Made by a program: the position numbers and the translations under genes. From positions 1 through 49,774 of the forward strand of contig CBDCKW010000003.1 in NCBI GenBank assembly GCA_965218435.1: a stretch of DNA of 49,774 nt, read 5' to 3'. Below, piece after piece: positions 6,351 to 43,396 of this stretch. Origin of the DNA: Truepera sp. Its GTDB lineage: Bacteria; Deinococcota; Deinococci; Deinococcales; Trueperaceae. Every line of letters begins with the position of its first letter. Position 1 is the first letter of the stretch. Under the pieces are notes generated by a model that was not told where the DNA came from, did not search any database, and saw only the letters and a program-made list of their open reading frames with translations.

Positions 6351-6889
6351 ACGGGCTCTACGGGCTCGCCGCTCCAGCAGAATTCGCTGTAGGCACAAGT
6401 TTTACAGTAGTGAAGCCATTCAGCTTTAGGTGGCCTCGGTTCCGCAGTTAAAACGCCGATTGCGTCTATGACCCTGAGTAACCCGCCGCGCATCTCTATC
6501 AAGCCGACCTCTTCACGCTTCCGCTCGTTGGGTACGAGTACCTCGCCGATAGCCTCGACGCCCTCCTGCTCTAAAACCCACAGGTAATAGGCGAGTTGCA
6601 GCTTTGCAGCAGGCAAAAACTTGCTCGACTTCTTAACCTCGCTCAAGATGAGCTGGCCCTTTTCCCGCCGCACCTGGTCTACCCTTACGCCACCCGGCAG
6701 CGTGACCTCTTTTTCACGCCGCTCGTAGTGGGCTTCGGTGTTGAGGCGGCCTTGAGCAAGGAGGTCATCATCTTGATTCGCTTCAATCTGGTGAGCGATA
6801 AGCCAGCATTCGCGGGGGCAGATGGCGTAGTACCAGATGAGGGTGCCGGTGATAGGTGAGTCTAAAGTATTGTTGTCTCGTTCTGCCAT
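6347..6889 (-). CDS. cas4: CRISPR-associated Cas4
   Basis: CPRECW, RecB-like D...EVKKS, QLAYY and a C-terminal CxxCxxxxxC Fe-S cluster. Confidence 0.96.
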   Translation of the reverse strand: MAERDNNTLDSPITGTLIWYYAICPRECWLIAHQIEANQDDDLLAQGRLNTEAHYERREKEVTLPGGVRVDQVRREKGQLILSEVKKSSKFLPAAKLQLAYYLWVLEQEGVEAIGEVLVPNERKREEVGLIEMRGGLLRVIDAIGVLTAEPRPPKAEWLHYCKTCAYSEFCWSGEPVEPV

Positions 6890-9399: not shown

Positions 9400-10154
9400 T
9401 CGAGAAACACCCCGATTTCGTCGGTAACGCTGTCCTGAGCTTCATAAGAAACAAAAAACGCAGGCCGGTTCAAGCGGGCAGTAATACCTTTACCTGTTCG
9501 CTCATAGAGCACATCACAAATTGCCGTGAGCTTGCGCTCACGGTCTAAAGCGAGTGGGATACGCTCCTTAATAATTTGCGAACCGAGTATCAGCTCAGGC
9601 GCACCGTCTAAAGCCTGGGTTGGTACGATAGTGGTTAGTAATTCTTTCTTTATGGGTTGCTCAAGGGTCCAGTCCGTAACTGTAGCGACGTGCGCGACGT
9701 GCGCTAGACACTCAGACATACCGAGGTAAGGAGGGTAAATCCAGGTGTCGGTTATGAGCAGTGTGTTCAGTTTTTCAAGCCAATCTCTATCTTCATGCGT
9801 CACGTAGATGCGGTAGCACAACTTTGGGTTATCAATCTCGGGAAAAATCCACTCGACAGGAATTTGCGTGCCACCCGCACTACCGTCAAAGTCTGAAGGC
9901 GATTTAGTCATTAGGTAATTCACCGTCTGCATCACACGCCGCACAGATGTTCGCACTGAAACAGCGATTTTACACTGCTCGAGCCCTAAGTCCTCACTGT
10001 AGCTATCCCGTTCGTAGCCCATCAGTCCTGCAATAAGTCCCGCCAGCGTCGAGCGTGGCGGAAAAGGATAAGACAGCGATGACGAGTTCGTATAGAACTT
10101 GCGAAACATCGCATAAGCCCCCGTAAGGTCAAAAACAATTAGTGGATTTGGCAC
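9396..10154 (-). CDS. cas5: Cas5 (I-B)
   Basis: VFDLTGAYAMFRKFYTNSSSLSYPFPPRSTLAGLIAG and YPPYLGMSEC. Confidence 0.95.
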   Translation of the reverse strand: MPNPLIVFDLTGAYAMFRKFYTNSSSLSYPFPPRSTLAGLIAGLMGYERDSYSEDLGLEQCKIAVSVRTSVRRVMQTVNYLMTKSPSDFDGSAGGTQIPVEWIFPEIDNPKLCYRIYVTHEDRDWLEKLNTLLITDTWIYPPYLGMSECLAHVAHVATVTDWTLEQPIKKELLTTIVPTQALDGAPELILGSQIIKERIPLALDRERKLTAICDVLYERTGKGITARLNRPAFFVSYEAQDSVTDEIGVFLE

Positions 10155-10158
10155 GATA

Positions 10159-11118
10159 CTAAAATTGTTTCAGGCGTTCACCGAGCACATTTTTCAGGTC
10201 GCTCTCAAGGCTGGTTTCTAGTGAAGGATGAAGAAACAGGTAAGCACTTTGAATATCACGTTCGTGTTGCTTGACCCGGTTGACAAGCGCACTAACGTCA
10301 AGCATATAGTCTTTGACATCTCGGATAGTGTCTTGCAACTTGCCCTCTTTAGCAACGGTCACCACATCTTCGCGCATATCTCCGAGCTTGGCGTTCACGT
10401 CTTCGTTGTACTCCACACGCAGGTAAAGCCTTGGCAGTTGACCAATCTTACTGCGTGAGGTTGCCTCTGAGGGAAGTGCTCTAAGCATAGCGTCGTCTAG
10501 CGTTTGAATATCTTCGGCTTGCAACTCTGTATGTTTAGCGCGGTGGCGCGTCACAATGCCGTAAAAACTGATAAGTGAGTAAAGTACGCGCCAATCTTTG
10601 CCAAAAGTGCCGTAGTCGCCTTTGTCGCCTGAGTCTCGTCCAGCGAAGGTGCTCGAGATAGTCGCAGACGAATTGATTTCGACCCGGTGTAGTGAGTAAC
10701 CCCACGAAAACTGAACGGGTCCGGTAAACGTCAAGGACGAGCCAGACATCGGCATCGTCGCTCCAAAGAGCCGTACGTCGAGCAATTCTCCTAACAACCA
10801 GGTTTTGAACTCCTTATCTTTACTGGCATCTTTTTCTTTTACCTCCCTACCGGAGGCATCTTTATAGGCGCTCAGCAGGTTTTTCATTCTGCCCTTGGCA
10901 TCGGTCGTCGAGCCGTCTACATTGCGTCTAACCCAAATATCACTGGTTTCACTATTTAACCAGTAATCCCGCAGGTAACGCTTCAGGCGCACATCCGAAA
11001 CGAGGTTGCGACCCGTCGCGTCGTCCATGCGTGGTTTGTTCTCCTCGTCGGGGTCGCCGTTGGGGTTAGCGAGCTTCGCGTCGTAAAGATACAAGATGTC
11101 GCTGTCAAAGATACTCAT
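10159..11118 (-). CDS. cas7: Cas7 (Csh2-type, I-B)
   Basis: NPNGDPDEENKPRMD, VSDVRLKRYLRDY, DVRLFG and TGPVQF. Confidence 0.96.
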   Translation of the reverse strand: MSIFDSDILYLYDAKLANPNGDPDEENKPRMDDATGRNLVSDVRLKRYLRDYWLNSETSDIWVRRNVDGSTTDAKGRMKNLLSAYKDASGREVKEKDASKDKEFKTWLLGELLDVRLFGATMPMSGSSLTFTGPVQFSWGYSLHRVEINSSATISSTFAGRDSGDKGDYGTFGKDWRVLYSLISFYGIVTRHRAKHTELQAEDIQTLDDAMLRALPSEATSRSKIGQLPRLYLRVEYNEDVNAKLGDMREDVVTVAKEGKLQDTIRDVKDYMLDVSALVNRVKQHERDIQSAYLFLHPSLETSLESDLKNVLGERLKQF

Positions 11119-11120
11119 GT

Positions 11121-13142
11121 TTACTCTCCTTGGAAACTGGAATCGTCTGCGGCTCCGCGTGGTGCGGACGAAGCACCCGTAATAGCTTGAAGGGTTGAAT
11201 GTGAATAACCGCTGAGGATGTAATAGATATTTTCACTCGGTGTAAGCGTCCAAGAGCCTGCGCCTTCACTGAGCAAGACTTGTGCTTGAGCAAAAATCTT
11301 TTCGTTACGAGCATTAAGCAGAGGTTGGCGTTGACCGTCTCGGTACTGCCTTAGTTTGTCAAAAAGGTCTACCGCAAGCTGTTGCACCTTATTTAAGGTC
11401 ATCCCTTGGTAGTTCAATTTGTTCAATATCGTTTTTTTGCCTCCTCTGCCTTCCGAGCCGAGCCGGTACTGTGAATTGGCAATTTCACCGATGAGAACGC
11501 CTAAAAGATAAAGCGCAGTTTGGTTTTGAGAGTAATGGAGTTTTTCTAGATACTCTCTTTGCTTTTTACTGAGACTTAAATCCTCAAGGTAGTTCAGTGA
11601 CATATCTTTCTCCTTTAGCTGACCCTGCACACGCAAAAATGCTAAGAGTAGGTTGCTTTGGGCGACATAACGGATAAGGGGATAGTCTTCTGCATTTTCT
11701 GAGGGTTGCGAAAGGTGGTAAGCAGCGTAAGTACCGAAACGGTAAACCCTAACCAACTCCATAAAATCTTGGATAAGTTGCCGAGCGTCCACCAAGCCAC
11801 CCGTAATGAGTGTGGCGTAGAACTCGAGTACGTTTCTGCTGTGATAATCTGTGCCACTTTTGCGAACGGGAAGTAGATAGTACATACTTTTGAGAGTTAA
11901 GTTCCACTGTTTGCTCTCTCTAAAAAGGACATCGCCGATACGCGTCTTAATCTTGTCACCTGCACGTCTGAGTTCGGCAAGCCTATACTCAGGAACATCT
12001 TGAATCATACGAACAATCTTGAAGCTGGCCTGAGCGCGTTTATAGAAAAGCAAATCGAGAGAATGACTGTATTCGCCAAAATCGTCGTCGGCGACCTCAC
12101 CTAATTCTTCTTGAATCCCTAAGTTGATGTCGGTGCGTTTTCTGATGTCGCGCGTTTCCTCCACGATATTGATGATGGTCGCAGCTGTCATTTCAGCCTG
12201 GTAAAGGTTAGGAAGGATATAGCCGTTCGTTCCTGCTAAATAGAACCCTAATTCGCGCTCTACGAACCTCTCACCGACAAGCAGCGCAATGTAGGCATCT
12301 TTAGAAATCGTTAGGTTGGACTTGAAACCGCTCGAGTTGACCTCGGAAGCGAACCCAAGCTTGTCGGTAATGTAATACTTGAACTTCAAGCGCGTAAGGT
12401 TGGAAGTGACGGGTACAACTTTACCGCTAAGGTGACAACAACCGACCTCGGCCCCCTCAAAAACATCACCTACATAGACGTTCTCAAGGTAAGTGAGGTA
12501 TTCGTCGTTATCTACGAGGAGTTGCCCGTTAACCGCGAGGGTAAAGAGCATTCTGTCATTACCAAGTTGCTCTTTGAAGTGTTCGGTCAAGGCATCTGCG
12601 ACTAGTTTAGATAAACCCTTGACGCTTCCCTCTTCACGAGCATAGTGCTGTAAACTTTCGACGGTCGGGCCTTCGATACCTAGTTTAGGAAGGTTGAGCA
12701 GTCGCCGTGAGCGCCTATGGGTGATAGCACTATCTGTGCTACCAAGACTTTCTTGCTCGCCAACATCAAGGTAAAATTCACTAACGATGGATGTCAGCAC
12801 GTCGTGAAAGCGCGTATCAACCGTAACAGCTGCAAGAAGGTTTGATAAGGTTTGCGATACCAGATATTGCAGTCCATCTGTAGTCAGACGGTCTTGGTCA
12901 CTCGCAGAACTCGCCGCATTGCCAAGCCACAAAAACTGCTCAACGGTGTTAGTTCCTTCTTGGCTAAGCTCTCTTACCTCGATATCCAGTGTTGACCGGT
13001 CGGTATCAAGTTTCAAAACCGCGATACTTGGATTGCCATTTTTGGGTGTAGGCGGCGCTTTCGCCAACGACTCCAAGAAGGCTCGTTGACCGCTCGAGTT
13101 CTCCATAATGGCTTTGCCGAGTTGGTAAATACTTTCAATCAC
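11121..13142 (-). CDS. cas8b: Cas8b large subunit (TM1802/Csh1-like) with a Cas11-like C-terminus
   Basis: Position between cas6 and cas7; FKYYITDKLGF; C-terminal LYLLGVLIG...ILNKLNYQGM...YYILSGY. Confidence 0.88.
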   Translation of the reverse strand: MIESIYQLGKAIMENSSGQRAFLESLAKAPPTPKNGNPSIAVLKLDTDRSTLDIEVRELSQEGTNTVEQFLWLGNAASSASDQDRLTTDGLQYLVSQTLSNLLAAVTVDTRFHDVLTSIVSEFYLDVGEQESLGSTDSAITHRRSRRLLNLPKLGIEGPTVESLQHYAREEGSVKGLSKLVADALTEHFKEQLGNDRMLFTLAVNGQLLVDNDEYLTYLENVYVGDVFEGAEVGCCHLSGKVVPVTSNLTRLKFKYYITDKLGFASEVNSSGFKSNLTISKDAYIALLVGERFVERELGFYLAGTNGYILPNLYQAEMTAATIINIVEETRDIRKRTDINLGIQEELGEVADDDFGEYSHSLDLLFYKRAQASFKIVRMIQDVPEYRLAELRRAGDKIKTRIGDVLFRESKQWNLTLKSMYYLLPVRKSGTDYHSRNVLEFYATLITGGLVDARQLIQDFMELVRVYRFGTYAAYHLSQPSENAEDYPLIRYVAQSNLLLAFLRVQGQLKEKDMSLNYLEDLSLSKKQREYLEKLHYSQNQTALYLLGVLIGEIANSQYRLGSEGRGGKKTILNKLNYQGMTLNKVQQLAVDLFDKLRQYRDGQRQPLLNARNEKIFAQAQVLLSEGAGSWTLTPSENIYYILSGYSHSTLQAITGASSAPRGAADDSSFQGE

Positions 13143-13903
13143 CTCACCACCTCCACCATCCCAAACCCCTGGGCATTCTTGCCCCCCAGCCCCACGTCAT
13201 ACGCCAGCTCAAAATATGCCTGCGGCAGCTTCAGCTCGTAAGTCCCGAGCCAAGCCTGAACGCTGAACCCCTTATAGCTGATGATTTTCTTGTCCCGTTC
13301 TGAAACCCGGAGCGGTTTAATCGAGGCGTGTGCTAACGTTTTAGCTGCGTCGTCTTCCCACTCCAGAGCTTTGGCTTTACGCGCCAGGTTTTGTAGCAGC
13401 ATCCCGCTCCAGTCTTTTTCCGGCGGGCTGTAGTAGTGCGTGAGCTTACCCCCGCCCGGTTTTTGAAAGGTGCTGTAGATCGTGATCGGTGACAGCGCCT
13501 TGACCCGGACGGGTTGGTCAGCTTGAAAGCAAGGGGGCCGGAGGATTTCGACGCCGTGTACTCGCACCTCATGTTGTCCCAGCCGTAACGTCTGGCTTTT
13601 GAGCAAGTGTTCGGCCAAAGACGCCAAAATCTGAGTGTTGTGGCTGGCCAGCTGAAAGGTAACAGGACCGCTAAAAGAGATACGTTTGGTGTTTGCGTTC
13701 AGCTTAAAGCGTCCGGTAAGGCGTGAAAAGGTAAACATCTTAAAGGTGCGCTGGGCGTAACTGTAAGCGGTGCCGTGAAGCCAACCGGCGAGATTGGGCT
13801 CGAGCTGGCTGTAGATAAACCCTTGCAAAATTATGCCATAGTGAACAGGCAAAGAGAGTTCTGCGCGGGACTCGGGGGTCAAGGTGATCTGGATACGCAA
13901 CAA
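13139..13903 (-). CDS. cas6: Cas6 endoribonuclease
   Basis: FKMFTFSRL and the C-terminal Gly-rich loop GLGGKNAQGFG. Confidence 0.96.
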   Translation of the reverse strand: MLRIQITLTPESRAELSLPVHYGIILQGFIYSQLEPNLAGWLHGTAYSYAQRTFKMFTFSRLTGRFKLNANTKRISFSGPVTFQLASHNTQILASLAEHLLKSQTLRLGQHEVRVHGVEILRPPCFQADQPVRVKALSPITIYSTFQKPGGGKLTHYYSPPEKDWSGMLLQNLARKAKALEWEDDAAKTLAHASIKPLRVSERDKKIISYKGFSVQAWLGTYELKLPQAYFELAYDVGLGGKNAQGFGMVEVVR

Positions 13904-14953: not shown

Positions 14954-15361
14954 CTAGCGGTTCTCGAGTAGAAAAGCTCGAACTGTCCGCACTCGCAAGG
15001 GTAGGTCGCCCCGTTCCATAAGGTGTCCAAAATGAGTAGTGTCGCCCGTCAGGAGGACGTCGGCCTTGTGTGCAAGCGCCGTTTCGTAGACGGGCCAGTC
15101 TTTTGCCGGTAGTTCGACGTTGGTCACTCCGTCATGTGCCTCGGGCACCTCGGCGACCTGCTCGAGCAGCGAGGCGAACCTCGCTAGCGCTTCGGGCCGC
15201 TTACGGGCGAGGTTGCGTTCGGCCTCCAGGCGGCAGTAACGGCTTGTAAGGAGCATTAGCCGCCCCGCCCCGGCAAGCTCCCACAGGAGAGCAAACGACG
15301 CCCCGCCGAGTGCTGCGCTGAAGAGGATGTTGGCGTCTAGAAATACCTTTATAGGCTCCAT
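14954..15361 (-). CDS. PIN-domain toxin
   Basis: VFLDANILFSA, LPAKDWPV and LLTGD. Confidence 0.9.
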   Translation of the reverse strand: MEPIKVFLDANILFSAALGGASFALLWELAGAGRLMLLTSRYCRLEAERNLARKRPEALARFASLLEQVAEVPEAHDGVTNVELPAKDWPVYETALAHKADVLLTGDTTHFGHLMERGDLPLRVRTVRAFLLENR

Positions 15362-15615
15362 GCCGTTCTAGCTTGCTTGAGTTCGTTCTCGGTCATCTCG
15401 GCATTCTCGGCGAACTCTTCGAGCCGGGCCTCGCTGTAGAGTTCGACTGGCGTAATTTCAACCGCTTCTAGGACAATCTCACCATCTTCGACACGGACAT
15501 TGAAGGCGTCGCCTGTGCGGAGCCCCAAAGCTTTACGCACTTCGGCAGGAAGCGTGAGCTGTCCTCGAGAGGAGAGCTGAACCAGAGGGTATTGCGGTGT
15601 GCGCGTCATCCCCAT
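15349..15615 (-). CDS. AbrB/MazE-family antitoxin
   Basis: SSRGQLTLPAEVRKALGLRTGD; overlaps the PIN start. Confidence 0.9.
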   Translation of the reverse strand: MGMTRTPQYPLVQLSSRGQLTLPAEVRKALGLRTGDAFNVRVEDGEIVLEAVEITPVELYSEARLEEFAENAEMTENELKQARTAWSL

Positions 15616-15661
15616 AATCTAGCAGAAATTCGGAAATACAGACGTCATAAAGCAGAGGAGG

Positions 15662-15697
15662 TAGCACGCGCTTATGCACGTGCAGGAGGAGAAGTAG
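15662..15697. repeat. Leading-region hairpin repeat, copy 1
   Basis: TAGCACGCGC-TTAT-GCACGTGC-AGGAGGAGAAGTAG. Confidence 0.85.
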
Positions 15698-15734
15698 CAG
15701 GAGTGATGCTCCTGACTTTTTCTGGAGGTGCGCT

Positions 15735-16595
15735 ATGCACCACGCCGTTTCAACCCTGTCCGCCCCGCCGCCAACCAAACCCAACCCTGCCATTGAGCGC
15801 CTGCATACCGGCGTCACCGAACTGCTCGACTCGCAGAGGTGGCAAGAGGCGCTGAGGTTTAAGACCCGGTTCCACGACTACTCGTTTAACAACGCCCTCT
15901 TGATCTACTTGCAGCGTCCCGACGCGAGCCTAGTTGCGGGCTATAAACGCTGGCAGGAGCTAGGGCGGCAGGTCAGAAAGGGAGAGACGAGCATCGCCAT
16001 CCTCGCGCCCATCGTGCGCCGTACCGAAGGTGAGGCGGAGGGTGAACGGGTGTGGGAGGTCGTGGGTTTCCGCTCGGCTCGCGTCTTCGACGTCTCGCAG
16101 ACCGACGGTAGCCCCCTACCCGAGCTGCCCCGACCGGTGCTACTGGAGGAGGACAGTGAGGCGGTTCGAGCGGCGCTGGCGAGAGCGGAAACCTTTGCCC
16201 TATCCAAAGGTTTCCCGGTGAGCTATCAAGACCTCCGTGGCGGCGCGCTCGGCTCGTTCTCAGTTACGAGGCGAGTGATAAAGGTGCGGACCGACTTGCC
16301 GCCCTTGCAGACCCTAAAAACGCTCGTACACGAACTCGCTCACGGCCTCATGCACGCCGACCCAAAAGCAGGAGAGAAGCGTCACCGGCTCGAGCTCGAG
16401 GCCGAGTCGTGCGCCTTTCTGGTGCTCTACGACCTCGGACTGGACACCTCGCGCTACACCTTCCCCTACCTGGCGAACTGGACCGAGCACCCGGACGAGC
16501 TGCTCGGGGCGGGTGAGAAGGCGGCCAGGGTCGCCGAGGAGGTGCTGCACACACTCAGGCTGCCTCTCGTAACCGACGCCTTCCCTAGTTCATAG
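15735..16595 (+). CDS. ArdC-like protein (ssDNA-binding N-domain plus HExxH metalloprotease-like domain)
   Basis: FHDYSFNNALLIYLQRP...VAGYKRWQELGRQVRKGE, VFDVSQTDG, TLVHELAH and ELEAES. Confidence 0.85.
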   Translation: MHHAVSTLSAPPPTKPNPAIERLHTGVTELLDSQRWQEALRFKTRFHDYSFNNALLIYLQRPDASLVAGYKRWQELGRQVRKGETSIAILAPIVRRTEGEAEGERVWEVVGFRSARVFDVSQTDGSPLPELPRPVLLEEDSEAVRAALARAETFALSKGFPVSYQDLRGGALGSFSVTRRVIKVRTDLPPLQTLKTLVHELAHGLMHADPKAGEKRHRLELEAESCAFLVLYDLGLDTSRYTFPYLANWTEHPDELLGAGEKAARVAEEVLHTLRLPLVTDAFPSS

Positions 16596-16626
16596 CACGC
16601 GCTCGCGCGTGCGGAGGAGAAGGTAG
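16593..16626. repeat. Leading-region hairpin repeat, copy 2
   Basis: TAGCACGCGC-TC-GCGCGTGC-GGAGGAGAAGGTAG; its TAG is the stop codon of the ArdC-like gene. Confidence 0.85.
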
Positions 16627-16708
16627 AGAGGAGGCTGTCGTTGCCACACTATGTTGGTTGACCCGCTCCGTTGAGAGCGGGGCTTTCACTTTCTTGGAGG
16701 AGATACTG

Positions 16709-18409
16709 ATGACCGTCCAGAGCTATCCACAAACCGCAGTTGCCCTGCCGCTCGCTACCTTGCCCCTTAGTGCCCTTACTCAAAGCGGTCTCAACCCCAG
16801 AACACGCTTCGATGAGGCCGCCATCGCCGAGCTCGCCCAGTCCATCCTCGAGCAAGGCGTGTTGCAAAACCTGGTGGTGCGCCCGCACCCTGAACACGAG
16901 GGCGTGTGGCAGGTGGTCGCCGGGGAGCGGCGCTACCACGCTCTTCAGCATCTTTTGGTCGAGGGGAAAATCGACGAGGTGTACCCGGTGCCCGTCGTGG
17001 TGCGAGAGGTGGACGATCACGAACTCCTGCTCCTAGCCACCGCCGAGAACGTCCAACGCCAGGACATGACCCCGTTGGAGGAGGCCGACGCCTTCGCCAA
17101 GCTCATGGCCCTGGGTGACACCGAAGAGGGCATCGCGCTCAGAACGGGGGTGGCCGTATCGACCGTGAAACTGCGGCTCAAGCTCACCTCGGGCTTGTGT
17201 GCAGACGCTCGTAGGGCGCTTTCAGCCGAGCAGCTGACCCTCTCCCAAGCCCAGGCGCTCCTGCTCGCCTCCAAAGGGTTGCAGAAGGAACTCTTGCCCC
17301 GCATCCTCGAGAGTGACTACGGCCCCAAAGACATCAAACGCCTCCTGACGCAAGACAAGGTGCCGGTGGGCCGTAACGTCTTTCCCTTAAAGGCGTATAC
17401 CGACGCCAAGGGCTCGATCACCCGTGACATCTTCCAGAGCGAGCACCCTGGCTGGTTCGACGACCGGGAACTCTTTATCCGCTTGCAGAACGAGGCCGTT
17501 GAGGAGAAGCTGGCAGCTTATCGGGAGCAAGGACTAGCGGTAGAGGTTACCCGCTACTTCATGCCGTATGGGTACACCGAGGGGGAAGGGGTCGTTATCG
17601 TGCTGAACGACTACGACGTCTCGGTGGAGTTCAAGGAAAGGCTTGTTAGACGCTCGGAGCCGAAACCCACATCGACTTCTACAACTCAAACCGGAGGCGA
17701 GACCAAGCCGAAAGAAAATCGGCGTAGGAACGAGTGGGAGGCCACGACGCTCACAAGGGCGCTCCACGTCGAGGCGGCCAAGGATTTTCGTCTCTGCTTG
17801 GTCCTTAACATCATGGCGCTGCTGAGCGTAAAGGGCTTTGACCTAAGACGCGAGGACGTCAGCGCTGAGCGGGGTCGTGCCAACCGCATCGTTTCAGAAG
17901 AGCTGCGACAAGCCTTTGAGAACGACCTCTCGAGACTGATTGATGGGTTTGAAGGTCCAGGGCTGAACCTTGGGCATTTAAGAGGGAACGAGGAACCCTA
18001 CCCACCGACCCTCGACGCCTACGGGGAGGGCATAGCCCACATCTTCGACACCCTTAGAGACATGAGCGACGAGGACCTACAGGCCCTCTTCTCCAAGCTG
18101 ACTGCCCTTGCCATCTCCCACATGAACAGCGACACGCTCTGGAACACCGAGGTCAAAAAGCTGGTGGCGGGGGCGACAAAGCTCAACGTCGCTGAACACT
18201 TCGACGCCTCAAGCCCTGAGTACCTCGCCTTGCACACCAAAGCCGAGCTGGGAGAACTGGCCCGGAACGCCAGGGTTGCGCTCGACGTCACCACGCTGAA
18301 AAAGCAGACTGCCGTCGAATACCTGAGTCAGCACGAGAAGGTCAGGGCGTTCGTACCCGAGAGGCTGAGGTTTGGGGCGGCTGCTGCCGTACCCGAACAA
18401 GGCAAATAG
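16709..18409 (+). CDS. Long ParB/Srx-domain protein of the plasmid leading-region type
   Basis: NPRTRFD, GVLQNLVVRP, VVAGERRY and AENVQRQDMTPLEEA. GGAGG precedes the ATG at 16709. No adjacent parA. Confidence 0.85.
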   Translation: MTVQSYPQTAVALPLATLPLSALTQSGLNPRTRFDEAAIAELAQSILEQGVLQNLVVRPHPEHEGVWQVVAGERRYHALQHLLVEGKIDEVYPVPVVVREVDDHELLLLATAENVQRQDMTPLEEADAFAKLMALGDTEEGIALRTGVAVSTVKLRLKLTSGLCADARRALSAEQLTLSQAQALLLASKGLQKELLPRILESDYGPKDIKRLLTQDKVPVGRNVFPLKAYTDAKGSITRDIFQSEHPGWFDDRELFIRLQNEAVEEKLAAYREQGLAVEVTRYFMPYGYTEGEGVVIVLNDYDVSVEFKERLVRRSEPKPTSTSTTQTGGETKPKENRRRNEWEATTLTRALHVEAAKDFRLCLVLNIMALLSVKGFDLRREDVSAERGRANRIVSEELRQAFENDLSRLIDGFEGPGLNLGHLRGNEEPYPPTLDAYGEGIAHIFDTLRDMSDEDLQALFSKLTALAISHMNSDTLWNTEVKKLVAGATKLNVAEHFDASSPEYLALHTKAELGELARNARVALDVTTLKKQTAVEYLSQHEKVRAFVPERLRFGAAAAVPEQGK

Positions 18410-18433
18410 CACGCGCTAGCGCACGTGCAGGGG
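18407..18433. repeat. Leading-region hairpin repeat, copy 3
   Basis: TAGCACGCGC-TAGC-GCACGTGC-AGGGG; its TAG is the stop codon of the ParB-like gene. Confidence 0.85.
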
Positions 18434-18536
18434 TGGGGGCAAAAAGGAGGTGGCTTCACCCTCGCCCATAGGAGAGGCCCGCGCTGACTTTACCGGAAAG
18501 CGCGGGCCTCGGTTCTCTCCCCACTCAAGGAGATGT

Positions 18537-18719
18537 ATGACCCAGTTTGCCCGTACCGCCATGAGGTGTCAAGGCGCGCCCTTTAGCAAGACGGAGCTTC
18601 GCCTCGACGTCGAGGTGCTTGCCGAGCGCTACGAAGCACTGGCGGCGCTCTCACCGCTCGAGGACGAACCGCCGGAGGAAGACGATACAGAAGAAGTACT
18701 AGACGACCTTCCCTTTTAA
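18537..18719 (+). CDS. Small acidic protein (60 aa) ending in an SSB-like tail, DDLPF
   Basis: AAGGAG precedes the ATG at 18537; C-terminus is EDEPPEEDDTEEVLDDLPF. Confidence 0.65.
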   Translation: MTQFARTAMRCQGAPFSKTELRLDVEVLAERYEALAALSPLEDEPPEEDDTEEVLDDLPF

Positions 18720-18771
18720 GTCTCTCCAGAGGCCGGGTTATCCCCGGTCTCACACCTCGAAAGGAGATGCG

Positions 18772-18954
18772 ATGGTCCAGCTCACCGCACCCCTGAGCAA
18801 ACGGCAGCTCGTGCTGCTCAGGACCCGTGCGTGTCTCGAGCGCCGCCTATGTGCTCCCACAACCTGCGACTACGGCCTCGCCGCCCGGATTAAAGAGATC
18901 GACCACGAACTCACCCGCATCGAGACGGCCAAACGCCGGGAGGACTCTATATGA
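18772..18954 (+). CDS. Hypothetical protein, 60 aa
   Basis: AAGGAG ribosome-binding site; ATGA overlap with the next ORF. Confidence 0.6.
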   Translation: MVQLTAPLSKRQLVLLRTRACLERRLCAPTTCDYGLAARIKEIDHELTRIETAKRREDSI

Positions 18955-19331
18955 CTACTACGCCCTTAACGCTCACCACCCTCACCCAAGAAAAGCACCT
19001 CGCGCCGCAGGTGTTCGACAGGGTGTGTGAACGCTTGCAGGTAGCGCAGGCGCACCACACCGAAGCGGTCAACGCCTTAGCCGAGGCGAAGTGTTCTTTA
19101 GAGTTCAAACGGGCCGAGCTGCTCGCTGGAGGGATTGACGGCAAGAACGCCGACGCTAGAGAGGCCGCCCTACGCCTCAGGCTGTTCGACGAGCACGCCG
19201 AACTTATCGGCCTCGAAGTGGTACTGAACGAAGCTAAGAAGGATTTCGAGCAGGCCCGGCTGACTTGGGACTGCTTGCGCTACAAGCTGCGGCTCCTCGA
19301 AGTGCAGCGGGCGCTAGGGGGGGCGGCTTAA
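18951..19331 (+). CDS. Hypothetical coiled-coil protein, 126 aa
   Basis: GGAGG ribosome-binding site; two long helical segments around GKNADAREA. Confidence 0.7.
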   Translation: MTTTPLTLTTLTQEKHLAPQVFDRVCERLQVAQAHHTEAVNALAEAKCSLEFKRAELLAGGIDGKNADAREAALRLRLFDEHAELIGLEVVLNEAKKDFEQARLTWDCLRYKLRLLEVQRALGGAA

Positions 19332-19367
19332 CCCCTCACCTTTCATTGTGGTATCGTAAGTAATACT

Positions 19368-19796
19368 ATGGAGCAGCGGCAGATCGTGCTCGACACCAAC
19401 GTTTTTGTTGCCGCGCTCCGTTCGCGCCGGGGTGCCTCGTTCAGGCTGCTCTCACTGGTGGGGACAAACTCGGCTTTTAAGACCAACCTTTCGGTGCCGC
19501 TCGTGCTCGAATATGAAGACGTCGCAAAACGCCCCGATATGGTCCCGGCTCTAAGTATGGAGGAGATCGACGCTGTGATCGACTACCTCTGCGCCGTTTC
19601 AAACAAGCAGGAGGTCTTTTTTCTCTGGCGTCCGCACCTCAAAGACCCCAAAGACGACATGGTCCTCGAGCTGGCCGTGGTCGCCGGTGCCGACGTTGTC
19701 ACCTTCAACGTCAGAGACTTTGCGGGAATTCAGACGTTTGGCCTGCGTGCGCTCACGCCGCAGGCATTTCTAGACGAGATTGGAGTGTTGATATGA
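19368..19796 (+). CDS. PIN-domain toxin
   Basis: IVLDTNVFVAALRS, DPKDDMVLELAV and VTFNVRDF. Confidence 0.9.
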   Translation: MEQRQIVLDTNVFVAALRSRRGASFRLLSLVGTNSAFKTNLSVPLVLEYEDVAKRPDMVPALSMEEIDAVIDYLCAVSNKQEVFFLWRPHLKDPKDDMVLELAVVAGADVVTFNVRDFAGIQTFGLRALTPQAFLDEIGVLI

Positions 19797-20029
19797 GCAA
19801 CCTCAGTTTGCGACTACCCGAATCGCTGCACAAGCAGGTCAAGGCGCTCGCCAAACAAGAAGGCGTCTCGATCAATCAGTTTGTCACCACGGCACTGGCT
19901 GAAAAGCTGTCGGCCTTGATGACCCAGGAGTACCTGGAGGCGCGGGCTGAACGCGGTAACCAAGCAGCGTTCGAGCGGGTGCTGGGTAAGGTGCCGGATG
20001 CGGAACCCGAACCGCACGACCGGCTCTAG
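19793..20029 (+). CDS. RHH/HicB-like antitoxin
   Basis: LSLRLPESLHKQVKALAKQEGVSINQF; ATGA overlap with the PIN gene. Confidence 0.85.
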   Translation: MSNLSLRLPESLHKQVKALAKQEGVSINQFVTTALAEKLSALMTQEYLEARAERGNQAAFERVLGKVPDAEPEPHDRL

Positions 20030-20307
20030 CTGCTCTCCTCATAACTCTGGGAATCCGTAAGAGGAAGGCTAAAAAGCGCCCGGTCCAAGTCGCGCTCGAG
20101 GTAGCCGTCAAGCACCTCCAAGAGCTTCTCTTCAGGCCACGCGCCCTGTTCTACTTGCTCCAAAACAGCTGCGCCCACGAGGATTTTTCTGCGAGTGTCA
20201 ACCTTGCGCTCTCGCTCTTTTGTCTGCGCCTTGACACGCTGAATCTTGGCGGTCAGCTCGGCGCGCTGCGCTTCTAACTTCCTCAGCTTCTCCTGGGTGC
20301 TCGCCAC
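20026..20307 (-). CDS. mobC: MobC/MobS-like relaxosome accessory protein
   Basis: ERKVDTRRKILVGA...LDGYLERDLDRALF; divergent from mobA across oriT, as in IncQ plasmids. Confidence 0.85.
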   Translation of the reverse strand: MASTQEKLRKLEAQRAELTAKIQRVKAQTKERERKVDTRRKILVGAAVLEQVEQGAWPEEKLLEVLDGYLERDLDRALFSLPLTDSQSYEESS

Positions 20308-20375
20308 GGTGCACCTCCTTGGCCGCCACTATAGACGAGATTGCCGCCCCGGGCAAAGGGGTAGCTGAAGCTGCC

Positions 20376-20416
20376 TTATGGCGCACATACCGGTTTCTCC
20401 GTCTCTAGAAACGGAG
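20376..20416 (-). other. MOBQ-type oriT; nic predicted between 20382 and 20381 on the minus strand
   Basis: Minus strand reads CCGTTTCT-AGAGACGG-AGAAACCGGTATGTGCG^CCAT, compared with RSF1010 ...AGAAACCGGTAAATGCG^CCCT as recalled. It lies between mobC and mobA. Confidence 0.85.
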
Positions 20417-20463
20417 CGTAGCCAGATCGTCTATGCTGGGGACTAGCAGCGAAGGTTCTGACA

Positions 20464-21259
20464 ATGGCGATCTATCATCTAAGAGCTCAGACAGGAAGCC
20501 GCGCGCGGGCAGTCCGCGAAGGCTAAGGCGGACTACATCCAGCGTGAGGGCAAGTATAAAGACCAGGAGGACAAGCTGGTTTATAAAGAGTCCGGCAACA
20601 TGCCCGGCTGGGCCGACGATGAGCCCTCGGAATACTGGCAGGCCGCGGACACCTACGAGCGGGCGAACGGCCGCCTCTACAAAGAAGTCGAGGTCGCCCT
20701 TCCTAAGGAGCTGGGAGAGGACGAGCGGGTCACACTGGCGCGTGAGTTCGCGGAGAAGCTCACCGAAAAGGAGAACCTGCCCTACACCCTGGCAGTGCAC
20801 GAAGGCAGGGGTGAGAACCCACACGCGCACGTGATGATTTCGGAGCGGATGAACGATGGCGTCGAGAGACCCCCGGAGACCTGGTTCCGGCGGGCGAACC
20901 GGGAGGAACCGGAGGGGGGCGGGGCGCTCAAGACGGAGAGCATGAAGCCGAAGGCGTGGCTTACCGAGACGCGGGAACTGTGGGGGCGCGAGGTCAATGG
21001 AGCCCTCGAGCGCGGGGGTCATGAGGCGCGCGTTGACCACCGCTCGCTCGAGGCGCAGGGGCTCGAGCGCGTCCCGACCCGGCACATCGGCGTGCACGCA
21101 GCGGCGATGGAAGCGCGCGGTATCCGCACCGAGCGGGGCGATATGGCGCTGGAGATTGACCGGCAAAACCGGGAGATCGAGCAGGAAAAGGCATCATTTT
21201 TAGAGGCGCAACAACAAATCGAGAGGGGCGCGCAGCGGGAGCGTGGGCTCGAGTACTGA
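20464..21259 (+). pseudogene. mobA: MobA/MobL (MOBQ) relaxase with a frameshift near 20500-20506
   Basis: MAIYHLRAQTGSRA, frameshift, then GQSAKAKADYIQREGKY...ERANGRL...LAVHEG...NPHAHVMISER...RVDHRSLEAQG. The span is 796 nt, not a multiple of 3. Confidence 0.9.
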
Positions 21260-21831
21260 GCCGAAGGTGAAGTTGCCAGTTCCGTGAAGCCTAGGTGGAA
21301 GCAGCAAGCACCTCCGATAGGCTTCACGAATGGGGGGTTCGAGTAGGTAGTAGGTTCGGCGACAAGCCGTACAAATTCAGCAATTCTTATGAGGTGGCAT
21401 GGCCGTAATTCCAGCGAGTGCGAAGGAGAAGTTGTAGCTGGGCTCCAGCGGCACCGTGGCAGAGTCGAGGCGGTACTCGCTTAGGTCGAAATAATCACCT
21501 AGTACCCTTCGCTTATGCGGTACTCGGGCCGGTTCACTGCATCATGGTTCATCCACCAAGAATTGTCCACGGTTAGCAGGGTAGCACTACCAAAAACTAC
21601 ATCACGTGCAGCAAGGAAGGTTGTTTGGCTGAATACCCCATCCGCTTGCGGCGGGGTTTTTATTTGCTACCGCCCAAACTTCCTTGGTTGCGGTCAACTA
21701 CACCCGCGCCTTAAGTTCAGCCTAGAGAACCGATCTCAGCAACAAGGTTCAAATGAATGCCCTCCTGACTATTATGGTCAAAATGCTATGCGACCCGCAA
21801 TAACCGCCGGTTCTCAACTTTGTCTTTTACA

Positions 21832-26587: not shown

Positions 26588-27627
26588 TCACGGCGTTGCG
26601 GAGGTCTCCTGGACAGCTCTGGCGACGCCTGACGCGCCTTCCCTCGCCCGAACGCTACACCCCTCGCGCGGCTACACCCGAGAACGCCACCAAAAATAAC
26701 GCTCGCCTGTTGGCGGCCTTGCGCGGACGCTACGGCGAGGCGACCGTGGCGGGGCTTCGCTGGCCGGAATGGGCGTGTCGGCCCGACGACTATCTGGGCT
26801 GCGCCGACTTGGGCGACAAGTTGATGTTCGCCATTGGTGCGCCCGTTTCGGGGACGAGAGGTCCTTTTAACCAGCAGCAATTGCGTCAGCTCGGCAAACT
26901 TTTGCAGGAGCTTGACTATGTGCGCGATGTGACCTACTACGAGGTTGATCCGGTAACCTTGGAAGTGAAGTGCACAGCTTCTCATAGCGTCTACTGGAAC
27001 GACTACGAGGCGCTCTTTTCGCCAATCCTTGACAACTTCGAGCCCCTACCTGAAGAAGGTCTCACGGGACCTTTGGAAGCTCTTTGTGAACGCTGGTTTA
27101 CCTCGCAAGGCGTACATCATGTCATCCGCTTAAAGCTTGACGATATCGACTGGAAGAGCGGTATGCGCGCCATGCTCCCCGCTGCGTTGTGGGAGGATTT
27201 TGACGTCGCCCCGGACCCCGAAAGGCTCAAAATTTATGTACAGAAGGCGTCGGTGACCTTTGTCGGACGCACCTTCGAACTTCCCTACCTCACCAAACGA
27301 CAGCTCACCTGGACGCTTTTCCCGCTCTTGGTCGGATTGCTCATCGGCGGCGTCTCGCTGATCTCCCTCTTGACACCCGAAGCCGCTACACCGGTTGAAC
27401 CGCTAGAACCGCCCCTGCTGCTCGAAGATACCTCTTCCCCGCCGCTCACCTGGTTGATGGGGCTCAAGGTTGCGGGCCTTGTACTGACGATCTTTTCACC
27501 GGTGATCGCCTACAGCGTTATTTTCTGTCTGTTCGTACACGTGCTGGCGCACGTGTTGTATGAGAATACGCCGCTCGGCACCCCCGAAGATCAGCGTTAC
27601 ACGGTCTACGTGAGTGGAGATACTTGA
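26563..27627 (+). CDS. Membrane protein with C-terminal transmembrane segments
   Basis: Hydrophobic stretches LFPLLVGLLIGGVSLISLL and VAGLVLTIFSPVIAYSVIFCLFVHVLA; TGATG coupling to the next gene. Confidence 0.7.
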   Translation: MDSPPGELITALRRSPGQLWRRLTRLPSPERYTPRAATPENATKNNARLLAALRGRYGEATVAGLRWPEWACRPDDYLGCADLGDKLMFAIGAPVSGTRGPFNQQQLRQLGKLLQELDYVRDVTYYEVDPVTLEVKCTASHSVYWNDYEALFSPILDNFEPLPEEGLTGPLEALCERWFTSQGVHHVIRLKLDDIDWKSGMRAMLPAALWEDFDVAPDPERLKIYVQKASVTFVGRTFELPYLTKRQLTWTLFPLLVGLLIGGVSLISLLTPEAATPVEPLEPPLLLEDTSSPPLTWLMGLKVAGLVLTIFSPVIAYSVIFCLFVHVLAHVLYENTPLGTPEDQRYTVYVSGDT

Positions 27628-29486
27628 TGCGCGGTGGCCTCGCCCACCTCGTCTGGCGACGCCGCCTCCCCTGGTTGCTGGGTATGCTCGCGCTTGCCCT
27701 CGGGGGCGGGATTTTTGGGTGGCTTCAGGGGCGCTTCGCGTGGAGAGTTCTAGCGGAGGAAGGCGTTGACCTCCTCCCAGGGCGCTGCCTGGAGCTCCTG
27801 AGCTGCGCCGAGTACTACGGGCGCTACCGCGCGTGGCTGGGCGAGTGGTGGACCTGGCTGGTCGACTCCGGACACGTCGAGCCCCTCCTCTTGGGCTCGG
27901 CCGTCGGCGCGTTTCTGGTAGGGGTCGTTGGTGCCGTCGCCGCGTACCCCAAACTGCGGGATATGCTCTTTGCCGCCCGGCAACTGCGCCTCCGCGCCGA
28001 GGAGGACCCCTGGCGGGTGCGCCACAAGCGCCCGCTGCGTTTGCCTAACGTCTACGGTCGTTTTTGGGCAGCGAGCAGCCAGATCAGGGACATGTTCTTA
28101 GCGCGTCTTCCCCGCCGCCTGGCGGGTCGCCTGTTGTTTCTCGGGACGTGGGGCCGCCAGCTCATCACCATCTACCCCGGTTGGGACGGCAAGCCCGAAC
28201 TCGACCACCTGCTCGTGGTGGCCCCCACCGGGAGCGGCAAGGGGATGCTGATTAAGGCAAACCTGGCGGCCTGGACCGGGAGCGCCATCGTGGCGGAGCT
28301 TAAAGGGGAGTTCTACCGTGACCTCGCCGGATACCTCACGGCCCGCGGAGGGCGCTGCCTGACGTTCAGCGTCACAGGCGTGGGTCACCGTTACGACCCC
28401 TTCGAGGAGTTCGACGACGAGCTTGGCCTCCAGACGGCGGCGAACCTGCTCATCCAGCCCGAAAAAGACGGGCGCAACCAGATTTTCGGCCAGCGCGCCG
28501 CCCTCGCGCTGCACGCCGGGCTCCTCGCCGCCCGCCGCCTCGGGCGCGCTACTCTCCCCTACCTGGCTGAGATCAGCGCTGGGGGAATGCGCGCCTACCT
28601 GGAAACGCTCTCTGCGCTAGACGACCCGGCAATCACAAGAAAGATCAACGCCTTTCTAAGCGAGCCGCCGGGTAGCAGAGACTGGGACGAGGTAGCGCAA
28701 GACCGTTTTATGCAGTCGAGCTGGGGCAACCTCACCACCCGGCTCGAGCCGCTCTGCGCTGCGCCTATCCTGGCCGCCACTAGCGGAAGCGATTTTAGAG
28801 CCGTGGACCTTAGACGACATCCGATCACCCTCTTTTTGAATTTTCCCTTGGAGACCCTCGAGGCTACGCTGCCGCTTTATCAGCTCGTCACCGAGTCGCT
28901 GCTACGCGGGTTGACTCAGGGGGATCAGGCCCGCTCCGAGTACCGCGACCACCCTGTTTTGTGGATATGCGATGAGGCCCACCTACTGGTGCCGCCTAAA
29001 CTACCTGAGCATCTCAACAGTTTGCGTGACTGGGGCGTCGCTGCCTGGGTCGTGTTGCAGAGTCGGGCACAACTCCGCGCCCTCTACGGGGCCGACGGTG
29101 CGGAGGCTATCGAAGCAGGCTGCGCCACGCAGGTCTACTACCGCCCCGCTGACCTAGAAACCCCGAAATACATCAGCGCCCGCGCGGGCATGATGCCGTT
29201 TCCGCAGGAGAGTACCAGCCAGCGCGAAGCGGAGCCCAAAGGGAGCACAAGCCTGAGCCTTACCACCCGGCCACTGATCCGCCCCGAGGCGATTATGGAG
29301 CTGCGTGACGACCGAATCCTCGTGTTCCCACGGGGCCGCCCACCCGTGGCGGCGCACCGGCTCTGGCCGACCGACCTCGGCTACGGCAACGCAGCCTTTG
29401 TGGAGCGCCGGGTAAACGGGGAGGTGCGGCTCACACCAAGGCACCCGGCCCCCGCACTTGTTCGTTTACAGGTGCCGCCAAGCTAA
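27627..29486 (+). CDS. VirD4/TraG-like type IV coupling protein
   Basis: Two N-terminal transmembrane segments, HLLVVAPTGSGKG, ELKGE, ICDEAH and LQSRAQLRALYG. Confidence 0.9.
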   Translation: MRGGLAHLVWRRRLPWLLGMLALALGGGIFGWLQGRFAWRVLAEEGVDLLPGRCLELLSCAEYYGRYRAWLGEWWTWLVDSGHVEPLLLGSAVGAFLVGVVGAVAAYPKLRDMLFAARQLRLRAEEDPWRVRHKRPLRLPNVYGRFWAASSQIRDMFLARLPRRLAGRLLFLGTWGRQLITIYPGWDGKPELDHLLVVAPTGSGKGMLIKANLAAWTGSAIVAELKGEFYRDLAGYLTARGGRCLTFSVTGVGHRYDPFEEFDDELGLQTAANLLIQPEKDGRNQIFGQRAALALHAGLLAARRLGRATLPYLAEISAGGMRAYLETLSALDDPAITRKINAFLSEPPGSRDWDEVAQDRFMQSSWGNLTTRLEPLCAAPILAATSGSDFRAVDLRRHPITLFLNFPLETLEATLPLYQLVTESLLRGLTQGDQARSEYRDHPVLWICDEAHLLVPPKLPEHLNSLRDWGVAAWVVLQSRAQLRALYGADGAEAIEAGCATQVYYRPADLETPKYISARAGMMPFPQESTSQREAEPKGSTSLSLTTRPLIRPEAIMELRDDRILVFPRGRPPVAAHRLWPTDLGYGNAAFVERRVNGEVRLTPRHPAPALVRLQVPPS

Positions 29487-43198: not shown

Positions 43199-43396
43199 CA
43201 GAGAAGCAGTAATTTAGACCCATGGGGTAACTTCGTTTAACGTTTCATAAAGGACGTTATGCAGTCCTCCTGCGGACGGGTTCTTTGTACCTATACCTTT
43301 CTTCTCCTCTTTGTTATTGCCCTTAACAATACGTTATCTTTGTGGGGAGCAAATGGGTCCAAAGAGTACGGTGCCACACCAGCTAGGAGCGTTCTG

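Follow-up and report, generated by a model that had tools for sequence, protein, structure and literature searches.

A 60-residue protein of a putative leading region with an SSB-type C-terminal tip and no OB fold: a possible mimic of the SSB tail

We analysed a 60-residue protein, P0001, which ends in an SSB-type C-terminal tip and has no OB fold. The C-terminal tip of SSB is the hub that brings replication, recombination and repair enzymes to ssDNA, and P0001 appears to be this known docking motif detached from SSB. Our preferred reading, to which we give a probability of roughly one half, is that P0001 is an OB-less mimic of the SSB tip that competes for, or bridges to, the pockets in which the tip of SSB docks. 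The tip is kept in a family of similarly short proteins, it corresponds to the tip of the host clade's own SSB, and the gene lies close to an oriT-like site.

The window, that is the whole stretch of DNA that was analysed, is an entire contig (C3) of 49,774 bp in a 4.8-Mb genome of 9 contigs. P0001 is the product of the + strand ORF 18537-18719, with the start codon ATG at 18537 and the stop codon TAA at 18717-18719. Its sequence is MTQFARTAMRCQGAPFSKTELRLDVEVLAERYEALAALSPLEDEPPEEDDTEEVLDDLPF. The C-terminal stretch reads LEDEPPEEDDTEEVLDDLPF and the final residues are EEVLDDLPF. The first-pass annotation had described a 60-aa protein with an SSB-type tip, placed behind a good ribosome-binding site and a hairpin, and the ORF, the AAGGAG and the 12-bp hairpin were all located (Table 1). 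A longer version of 89 aa, starting from GTG 18450, was rejected because the homologs begin at the M-x-Q-F of the short form (30 of 33 start at or near its M-x-Q/P motif).

Table 1. Position of the P0001 gene, its parts and the neighbouring features in the window.
Feature	Coordinates	Strand	Evidence or remark
ArdC-like protein: ArdC-N ssDNA-binding domain and M78-type metallopeptidase	15735..16595	+	family matches
ParB-N/HTH protein, 566 aa from ATG 16709	16709..18409	+	additional gene between ArdC and P0001; absent from G005
Upstream module: palindrome TAGCACGCGCTAGCGCACGTGC, G-rich hairpin, 12-bp hairpin (18474-18510), then Shine-Dalgarno	18407..18536	+	folding; conserved in G005
Shine-Dalgarno AAGGAG, 4 nt 5' of the P0001 ATG	18527..18532	+	motif and spacing identical in G005
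P0001 CDS, stop included	18537..18719	+	33 distinct homologs; dN/dS 0.23 vs G005 copy
P0001 codons 23-38, conserved amphipathic helix LDVEVLAERYEALAAL	18603..18650	+	invariant columns; AF2 helix 25-38; dN/dS 0.07
P0001 codons 39-55, variable acidic linker	18651..18701	+	in-frame length changes among homologs
P0001 codons 56-60, DDLPF, SSB-type C-terminal tip	18702..18716	+	family conservation; host SSB EEDLPF end
60-aa gene without family assignment, 52 nt 3' of P0001, own AGGAG	18772..18954	+	syntenic in G005; dN/dS 0.19
126-aa helical-hairpin protein, start overlaps preceding stop (ATGA)	18951..19331	+	97 homologs
93-aa gene, divergent from relaxase gene, presumably MobC-like	20026..20307	-	no family match
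MOBQ-type oriT nic-region-like sequence	20377..20395	-	3 mismatches to consensus
MobA/MobL (MOBQ/TraA-like) relaxase gene in two frames	20464..21259	+	frameshift between ~20497 and ~20510

The structure of P0001 was predicted with AlphaFold2 on a 24-sequence alignment. The model contained a single helix, at residues 25-38 (block pLDDT ~81), and no strands, and the rest of the protein was left without secondary structure; the mean pLDDT of the model was 66. Most of P0001, the linker included, is predicted to be disordered, and among its last 25 residues 11 are acidic and none is basic. P0001 looks like short motifs joined in a row: MTQFA at the N-terminus, then the amphipathic helix, a leash of acidic residues and finally the tip. 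We did not detect any SSB/OB or other Pfam match for P0001 at E <= 0.01, nor any Pfam match for the 24 family members even at E <= 1. At the thresholds used no PHROG, NCBIfam or PADLOC family matched it, the PsiB profiles of Pfam, NCBIfam and PHROG gave no match, and the ESM Atlas search returned no usable one. As to particular families, P0001 did not match the SSB model PF00436, its model has no strands and 60 aa are too few for that fold; it likewise had no Pfam or PHROG match to the DNA mimics ArdA (PF07275) and Ocr, and its model consists of one helix and disorder. The earlier claim that the protein lacks an OB fold agrees with these results.

Homologs were collected in two ways. A word-indexed search gave 24 family proteins of 60-70 aa, the query counted. 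A profile was also searched exhaustively against 1.84 billion representatives, with 12 matches at E <= 0.001, of which 10 were short members, 9 of them new. Two long representatives (2432 aa, E = 2e-5; 635 aa, E = 5e-5) were rejected as relatives, being repetitive Ig-like/DUF11 surface proteins. Altogether there were 33 distinct family members of 51-83 aa, and no longer or fused relative was found in these searches. The end DDLPF is present in 25 of the 33, and 30 have an end of the D[DN][LP][PL]F type with terminal Phe and with the stop codon immediately 3' of it. The terminal Phe was lost in the remaining three (DDLPSSR, DDLPI and DDLPS). Every member carries 9-13 acidic and 0-2 basic residues among its last 25. 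The length of the acidic linker shifts in frame across the family, and the tip stays at the stop codon. Nine of the 14 invariant columns of the family alignment (A1) fall within residues 23-38, where they gather in LDVEVLA-R-E-L.

We compared P0001 with its copy in G005, a genome of the same genus. All 60 codons aligned with zero gaps. The dN/dS of the whole gene was 0.23, at a dS of ~1.3, which is near saturation; that of the helix segment was 0.07, and the tip showed 3.0 synonymous and 0 non-synonymous differences. This pattern of substitutions argues for selection on the peptide rather than on the DNA. Judged from these comparisons, P0001 should be regarded as a genuine gene, with a tip that purifying selection has kept across a family of short proteins without an OB fold. 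Conservation of the terminal LPF had been put forward as a check on the first annotation, and the tail passed it. The mimic had also been called minimal, which does not fit the data: the amphipathic helix is the most conserved part of P0001, which implies a second contact and something other than a bare decoy.

We then compared the tip with the SSB of the host. The genome has a single SSB gene, on the chromosome, which encodes two OB folds in one chain of 280 aa; the SSB Pfam model matched the chromosome only, and no ssb was found on the contig that forms the window. The solved structures closest to the host SSB are 1se8, 2fxq and 2cwa, which we take to be Deinococcus and Thermus SSBs. The host protein has the C-terminus KLDIDEEFPPEEDLPF (...EEFPPEEDLPF). 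Across 30 genomes of the same order SSB ends in EDLPF in 29 and in EELPF in one, and the 9-mer FPPEEDLPF is exact in all but two of these relatives. The end of P0001, an acidic C-terminal [ILV]PF tip (DDLPF), matches this clade-specific LPF form of the host tip. In order to see how frequent such ends are, stop-to-stop frames of at least 40 aa were read over the whole 4.8-Mb genome and searched for the ends [DE][DE][LIVM]PF or D[LI]PF. Only 3 of 65,423 frames had one: P0001, the chromosomal SSB and one frame of 42 aa. The tail of P0001 is beyond chance.

The layout of the tip is also that of an SSB-Ct-type motif, as it stands at the extreme C-terminus, leaves a free carboxylate on Phe and follows an acidic arm that is predicted to be disordered. 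As in the bacterial SSB-Ct, which in E. coli is DDDIPF according to PMC5872125, P0001 has Phe as the very last residue, Pro at -1, an aliphatic residue at -2, Asp at -3/-4 and a disordered acidic stretch before them. The likeness is limited to the tail. In contrast to bacterial SSB, P0001 has 60 residues, no OB fold and no known oligomerisation core, and it cannot bind ssDNA in the way SSB does. Even at the level of the tip the match to the host SSB tail is just DLPF and acidity. In the SSBs of all 30 relatives FPPEE stands immediately before the tip, a place where P0001 lacks it. Partners that read a longer tail may bind P0001 weakly. A PPEED does occur 12 residues upstream of the tip. The comparison of EDEPPEED with EEFPPEED of the host SSB gave a BLASTP E of 0.18, which is not significant, so that descent of P0001 from the 3' end of an ssb gene is neither shown nor excluded by its sequence.

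The partners named in the first-pass annotation were ExoI, RecQ, RecO and PriA, a list centred on E. coli. PMC4846377 describes a crystal structure in which the tip peptide of D. radiodurans SSB, EDDLPF, sits in a pocket of the RecJ C-terminal domain, its terminal Phe buried. The same source reports that in D. radiodurans RecJ binds the tip and RecO does not (PMC4846377). RecJ of D. radiodurans is the only partner of the SSB tip with a solved structure in this phylum. The C-terminal domain of the host RecJ could not be aligned to that of D. radiodurans, either with phmmer or with a 14-sequence profile of the domain in the host's family, therefore RecJ is not simply transferable as a target of P0001.

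The genes 3' of the 126-aa gene are, in order, a PIN/RHH pair, the divergent 93-aa gene and the relaxase gene. Between the last two lies the oriT-like site, which an inverted repeat precedes on the - strand; the MOBQ consensus used for the match was taken from PMC3832669. A second match with three mismatches is present inside an integrase gene and is probably due to chance (0.34 expected). The distance from the end of the P0001 gene to the oriT-like site is 1,658 nt. In conjugation the 5' end keeps the relaxase bound, and strand transfer proceeds 5' to 3'. By this rule the - strand would enter toward lower coordinates, so that the genes from ardC to the 126-aa gene would form the leading region. 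P0001 is then near the oriT-like site, on the side transferred first and with the transferred strand as template, the direction being that of the general rule. The leading-region setting assumed in the earlier annotation is in keeping with this, as the gene adjoins the ArdC region, ~1.7 kb from the oriT-like site and in an orientation suited to early expression. Leading regions are enriched in SSBs and anti-defence genes, oriented so that the T-strand can be transcribed (PMC11541004). Since P0001 is on the oriT-proximal leading side, has the transferred strand as template and has its own copy of the upstream module, it is probably among the first plasmid proteins made on entry.

The contig also encodes a type IV coupling protein, two ParA-type genes, a type I-B cas operon and a PDZ-bearing protease of the Tricorn/S41 type. 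No full transfer apparatus was seen on it. The element may be decaying, as the relaxase is in two frames and an insertion sequence interrupts a chromosomal copy of the P0001 gene in G005. That copy is the second one in G005; the first is on a plasmid-like contig, where ParB is absent and the genes run ArdC, P0001 homolog, 60 aa, 125 aa. In two other plasmids (Alicyclobacillus and Gloeothece) the neighbourhoods of ArdC contained no small protein with the tip, therefore ArdC plus tip is not a general pairing. The model of the 126-aa neighbour had a pLDDT of 88, with helices at residues 19-60, 67-77 and 79-125. We did not obtain a Foldseek match for it at E <= 0.001, and in the lack of a specific structural match its fold gives no clue to function.

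The stretch directly upstream of the gene is structured. Folded as ssDNA, the 130-nt module gave z-scores of -3.3 (+ strand) and -4.2 (- strand), and on each strand none of 200 shuffles folded as well. It includes a perfect 12-bp hairpin (18474-18485/18499-18510). The window has exactly three copies of the module, which starts with TAGCACGCGCT: one immediately 5' of each of ardC, parB and P0001. The same module is found 5' of the G005 homolog, where the two arms of the long hairpin both carry changes; by visual reading of the two sequences the stem positions that differ still pair. The stop codon of ParB is the first triplet of the module, and there is no OB remnant upstream of P0001. These features were considered in view of a possible Frpo/ssi-type promoter acting on the incoming single strand. 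We found no sigma-70-like promoter on the + strand, and Rfam gave nothing at E <= 0.1 over 15000-21500.

The P0001 family is rare. It occurs in 2 of 61 genomes of relatives, the window's own counted. The family-wide search, whose tally takes in one unpublished genome (G128) on which no particular claim depends, found the gene in 2 of 128 genomes, together with one weak partial match that contains a stop codon. No relative was detected when the family alignment was searched against collections of genome, metagenome and viral contigs. A degenerate DNA pattern for the helix matched four times in metagenomes, always in long GC-rich frames and never in a family member. The tblastn search of PLSDB gave no match for P0001 or for the 126-aa neighbour.

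We analysed whether other proteins of this bacterial family carry the tip. Briefly, a DNA pattern for [D/E]-D-L-P-F-stop was run over the 128 genomes, where it matched in 112, mostly at ssb. From about 135 matches listed, 17 were examined, namely those of the Asp-Asp type and the majority of the second matches found in any one genome. One locus (L112) had no LPF-type match, and the 16 frames read comprised 13 non-SSB proteins, two SSB paralogs and one frame of five residues. Five genomes encode HD_5-domain proteins ending in DDDLPF, four of 364 aa and one read as 426 aa. The other ends belong to a C-terminal part of DnaE (VDDLPF, L099), a DUF4917/SIR2_2 protein (EEDLPF, L106), two weak Nuc_deoxyrib_tr-like proteins below the Pfam cut-off (EDLPF, L108 and L109) and an ankyrin-repeat protein (HDDLPF, L104). 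Three more proteins have no Pfam family: one of 193 aa (NDDDLPF, G012:C97) encoded ~0.9 kb downstream of an ArdA gene, one of 143 aa (EFPPEEDLPF, G011:C34) that follows a methylase-Mrr fusion gene, and an acidic one of 57 aa (LEDLPF, G077:C7). None of the 13 is present in the window's own genome. The SSB tip is portable onto non-SSB proteins in this clade.

A conjugating plasmid arrives as ssDNA, which is exactly what the SSB hub serves. The interpretation in the first-pass annotation, a mimic that would titrate or recruit SSB partners to protect incoming ssDNA or dampen SOS, is supported in part. According to the preferred reading, P0001 would be an early product, expressed from the strand that enters the recipient. 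Its free tip would put the terminal Phe and its carboxylate into the pockets of host genome-maintenance proteins that dock the SSB tail, which would place P0001 in competition with the SSB bound along the single strand as it comes in. The second contact would come from the helix, either by self-association, with more tails per particle, or by binding a partner. P0001 may either block the SSB partners or recruit them. Two considerations count against a plain decoy. A competitor with a single tail needs a high copy number, and the helix is conserved beyond what a pure decoy requires. The mimic reading is further weakened by the three members without terminal Phe, the signs of decay in the element and the rarity of the family, as it is by the FPPEE missing at the tip and the RecJ domain that could not be aligned. 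If the mimic were real, a plasmid could, with a protein consisting of the tip only, jam or redirect the hub at very little cost in the first minutes in a new host.

The conservation of the helix, the most conserved segment of P0001, also fits a bridging adaptor, a reading we consider possible although not probable. In such an adaptor the helix would bind a plasmid protein (the presumably co-transcribed 60-aa or 126-aa protein, or ArdC) and the tip would recruit the host's SSB partners. In this way a plasmid protein that binds or processes ssDNA and has no tail of its own might gain an SSB tail in trans, and the contig indeed has no ssb. With regard to the 126-aa protein, its homologs and those of P0001 are on shared contigs in 7 cases, as judged by contigs of equal size; however, the same kind of search gave 97 homologs of the former and 24 of the latter, therefore the 126-aa family mostly occurs without P0001. 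With regard to ArdC, the plasmid-like contig of G005 has the same order, ArdC, P0001, 60 aa, 125-126 aa, and the G005 chromosome has it in broken form. Nevertheless, parB separates ardC from P0001 in the window, and no tip-bearing protein is encoded beside ArdC in the two other plasmids.

SSB tails may bind the OB fold of SSB itself in cis. The acidic tail of P0001 could mimic nucleic acid or be a ligand of something other than the SSB-tip pockets, such as the OB fold of SSB, a DNA-binding defence protein or a PDZ protease that reads C-termini. The excess of acidic over basic residues in the last 25, the anti-restriction genes that adjoin P0001 and analogous loci, and the PDZ-bearing protease encoded on the contig all point in this direction. 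We nevertheless think it unlikely. Generic mimicry does not explain why the last five residues are strictly conserved while the linker drifts, the tip is identical to that of the clade's SSB, and P0001 is predicted to be unfolded, unlike mimics of the ArdA/Ocr type.

An anti-defence decoy would differ from the general mimic in its target. P0001 would displace tip-ended enzymes of defence type from the site where they dock, or blind sensors of the SSB tail, and so protect the entering plasmid. ArdC is nearby, and leading regions, such as the one in which P0001 appears to lie, concentrate anti-defence genes (PMC11541004). The DUF4917/SIR2_2 and Nuc_deoxyrib_tr-like proteins with the tip in genomes of relatives are candidates for such enzymes, but their role in defence comes from domain names, with the Nuc_deoxyrib_tr matches below the Pfam cut-off, and the window's own genome encodes no enzyme of this kind. 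We regard this reading as quite improbable. It is extremely improbable that P0001 is a functionless relic, either the 3' end of a decayed ssb or a chance ORF, in spite of the weak resemblance of EDEPPEED to EEFPPEED (E = 0.18) and the signs of decay elsewhere in the element, and an ssb pseudogene was rejected, as the start, the Shine-Dalgarno and the upstream module of P0001 are its own and are conserved, its 33 homologs are equally short with none longer, no OB remnant precedes it and its dN/dS is 0.23 at saturated dS.

We compared the proposed SSB-tip mimic with systems already described. The tail that is shared by an SSB and a non-SSB protein has a counterpart in phage T7, where gp2.5 (the SSB) and the gp4 helicase-primase share an acidic, Phe-ended tail, and a non-SSB protein thereby uses the SSB docking site. 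In contrast to P0001, which is a stand-alone mini-protein, gp4 is a replisome component with a large folded body and an unrelated sequence. PsiB/PsiA and ArdA/Ocr resemble P0001 in being small early proteins of leading regions that act on host DNA metabolism or defence, and ArdA/Ocr are also acidic. PsiB/PsiA, ArdA and Ocr are folded proteins, whereas P0001 is predicted to be one helix and disorder and has no sequence or family match to them. The SSBs of plasmid leading regions, such as the ssb of F and ColIb-P9, share with P0001 the location, the orientation that lets the T-strand be transcribed, presumably early expression, and an SSB tail presented in the new host (PMC11541004). They are full OB-fold proteins that coat DNA, whereas P0001 is tail only. 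G005 encodes, on another contig, a full two-OB SSB paralog that ends in FPPEQDLPF, therefore P0001 is not simply the plasmid SSB of that clade. Full-text literature searches, with subscription journals outside their coverage, listed no paper on a natural stand-alone protein with an SSB tip and no OB fold.

If the preferred reading is true, P0001 would represent a new mechanism in the anti-defence biology of leading regions. It would also offer a natural template for inhibitors of the SSB hub and a handle on the enzymes that read the tip in this clade, where they are poorly known. We suggest tentatively, as a rather doubtful generalisation, that P0001 is an instance of an undescribed class of leashed SSB-tip mini-proteins of mobile elements, which would be the first made on entry, would reprogram the SSB hub of the host and might, as anti-defence factors that act by motif mimicry, specifically knock tip-docked defence or repair enzymes off the SSB-coated incoming strand. 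Consistent with such a class, three unrelated OB-less carriers of the tip occur in the same bacterial family, one of them by ArdA and one by the methylase-Mrr gene.

We observed the SSB-type tip (the acidic C-terminal E/D-DLPF end of the host clade's SSB) on several non-SSB proteins with recognised domains in relatives' genomes. Chromosomally encoded proteins with an HD_5 (HD-GYP-type) domain carry the SSB tip in the form DDDLPF. They were found in five genomes of three genera (loci L098 and L100-L103 of G026, G109, G016, G119 and G031); four are 364 aa long and one was read as 426 aa. Such an end suggests a signalling enzyme that would dock on the SSB hub. Other non-SSB proteins with such an end were the C-terminal part of DnaE (VDDLPF; L099 of G024), a DUF4917/SIR2_2 protein (EEDLPF; L106 of G076), two nucleoside-deoxyribosyltransferase-like proteins identified by weak matches (EDLPF; L108 of G117 and L109 of G127) and an ankyrin-repeat protein (HDDLPF; L104 of G136). 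No Pfam family was found for three further tip-ended proteins, of 193, 143 and 57 aa, which look like independent analogues of P0001, the 60-aa DDLPF-ended protein of the window, on mobile DNA.

Location of the features in the window and in relatives' genomes.
Feature	Location	Strand	Remarks
Type I-B cas operon	5358-13903	-	Cas6, Cas8b/TM1802, Cas7, Cas5, Cas3, Cas4, Cas1
TAGCACGCGCT module, copy 1	15662-15734		directly 5' of ardC
TAGCACGCGCT module, copy 2	16593-16708		directly 5' of parB
TAGCACGCGCT module, copy 3	18407-18536		directly 5' of P0001
126-aa protein	18951-19331		predicted two-helix hairpin, confident (pLDDT 88)
MOBQ-type oriT-like site	20377-20420	-	inverted repeat, then AACCGGTATGTGCGCCATA
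Relaxase gene (part)	20464-20620		two reading frames
Type IV coupling protein	27624-29486
1835-aa protein	37691-43198		weak matches AAA_16/NPHP3_N, Avs1b-like
1123-aa Tricorn/S41 protease	43259-46630		PDZ domain; after 1835-aa protein
ArdC / P0001 / 125-aa block	L007 (G005:C8), about 3,406,600-3,408,000		chromosomal
Second two-OB SSB paralog, 264 aa	L065:7499-8293 (G005:C5)		43% identity to host SSB
57-aa acidic protein	L113:7692-7862 (G077:C7)		DUF7222 gene precedes
143-aa protein	L114:7571-7999 (G011:C34)		end EFPPEEDLPF; methylase-Mrr gene precedes
193-aa protein	L115:1532-2110 (G012:C97)		ArdA gene ~0.9 kb before

The module beginning TAGCACGCGCT occurs exactly three times in the window. 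Its opening sequence, an imperfect palindrome, is followed by a purine-rich stretch, a hairpin and a Shine-Dalgarno sequence, and in two of the three copies the TAG doubles as the stop codon of the preceding gene. As single-stranded DNA the module is strongly structured, and it is kept in G005, a genome of the same genus. Candidate roles for the module are those of a shared operator, of a terminator and of a single-strand promoter serving leading-region cassettes.

In the copy of the ArdC / P0001 / 125-aa block on the G005 chromosome, the P0001 homolog is split by an insertion sequence, and more transposase genes lie inside the block. The 264-aa SSB paralog of G005, encoded on a 130-kb contig, ends in GDEFPPEQDLPF; neither ArdC nor the TAGCACGCGCT module adjoins it.

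The 126-aa neighbour of P0001 has 97 homologs and is far commoner than P0001 itself. Family and fold searches gave no match for it. The start of its gene overlaps the stop of the preceding 60-aa gene.

The oriT-like site is located between the relaxase gene and a divergent 93-aa gene, and its AACCGGTATGTGCGCCATA differs from the published MOBQ consensus by three mismatches. In the relaxase gene the frame MAIYHL...GSR reaches a stop, while the part matching MobA/MobL (...ARGQSAKAKADYIQREGKY...) lies in another frame; the change is located in a CG-rich run near 20497-20510. The split gene may be a pseudogene or reflect a sequencing error. No transfer apparatus was seen on the contig, which carries the type IV coupling protein. 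The cas operon on this plasmid-like contig looks complete; its GC content is about 0.48-0.50, lower than that of the leading region (about 0.60).
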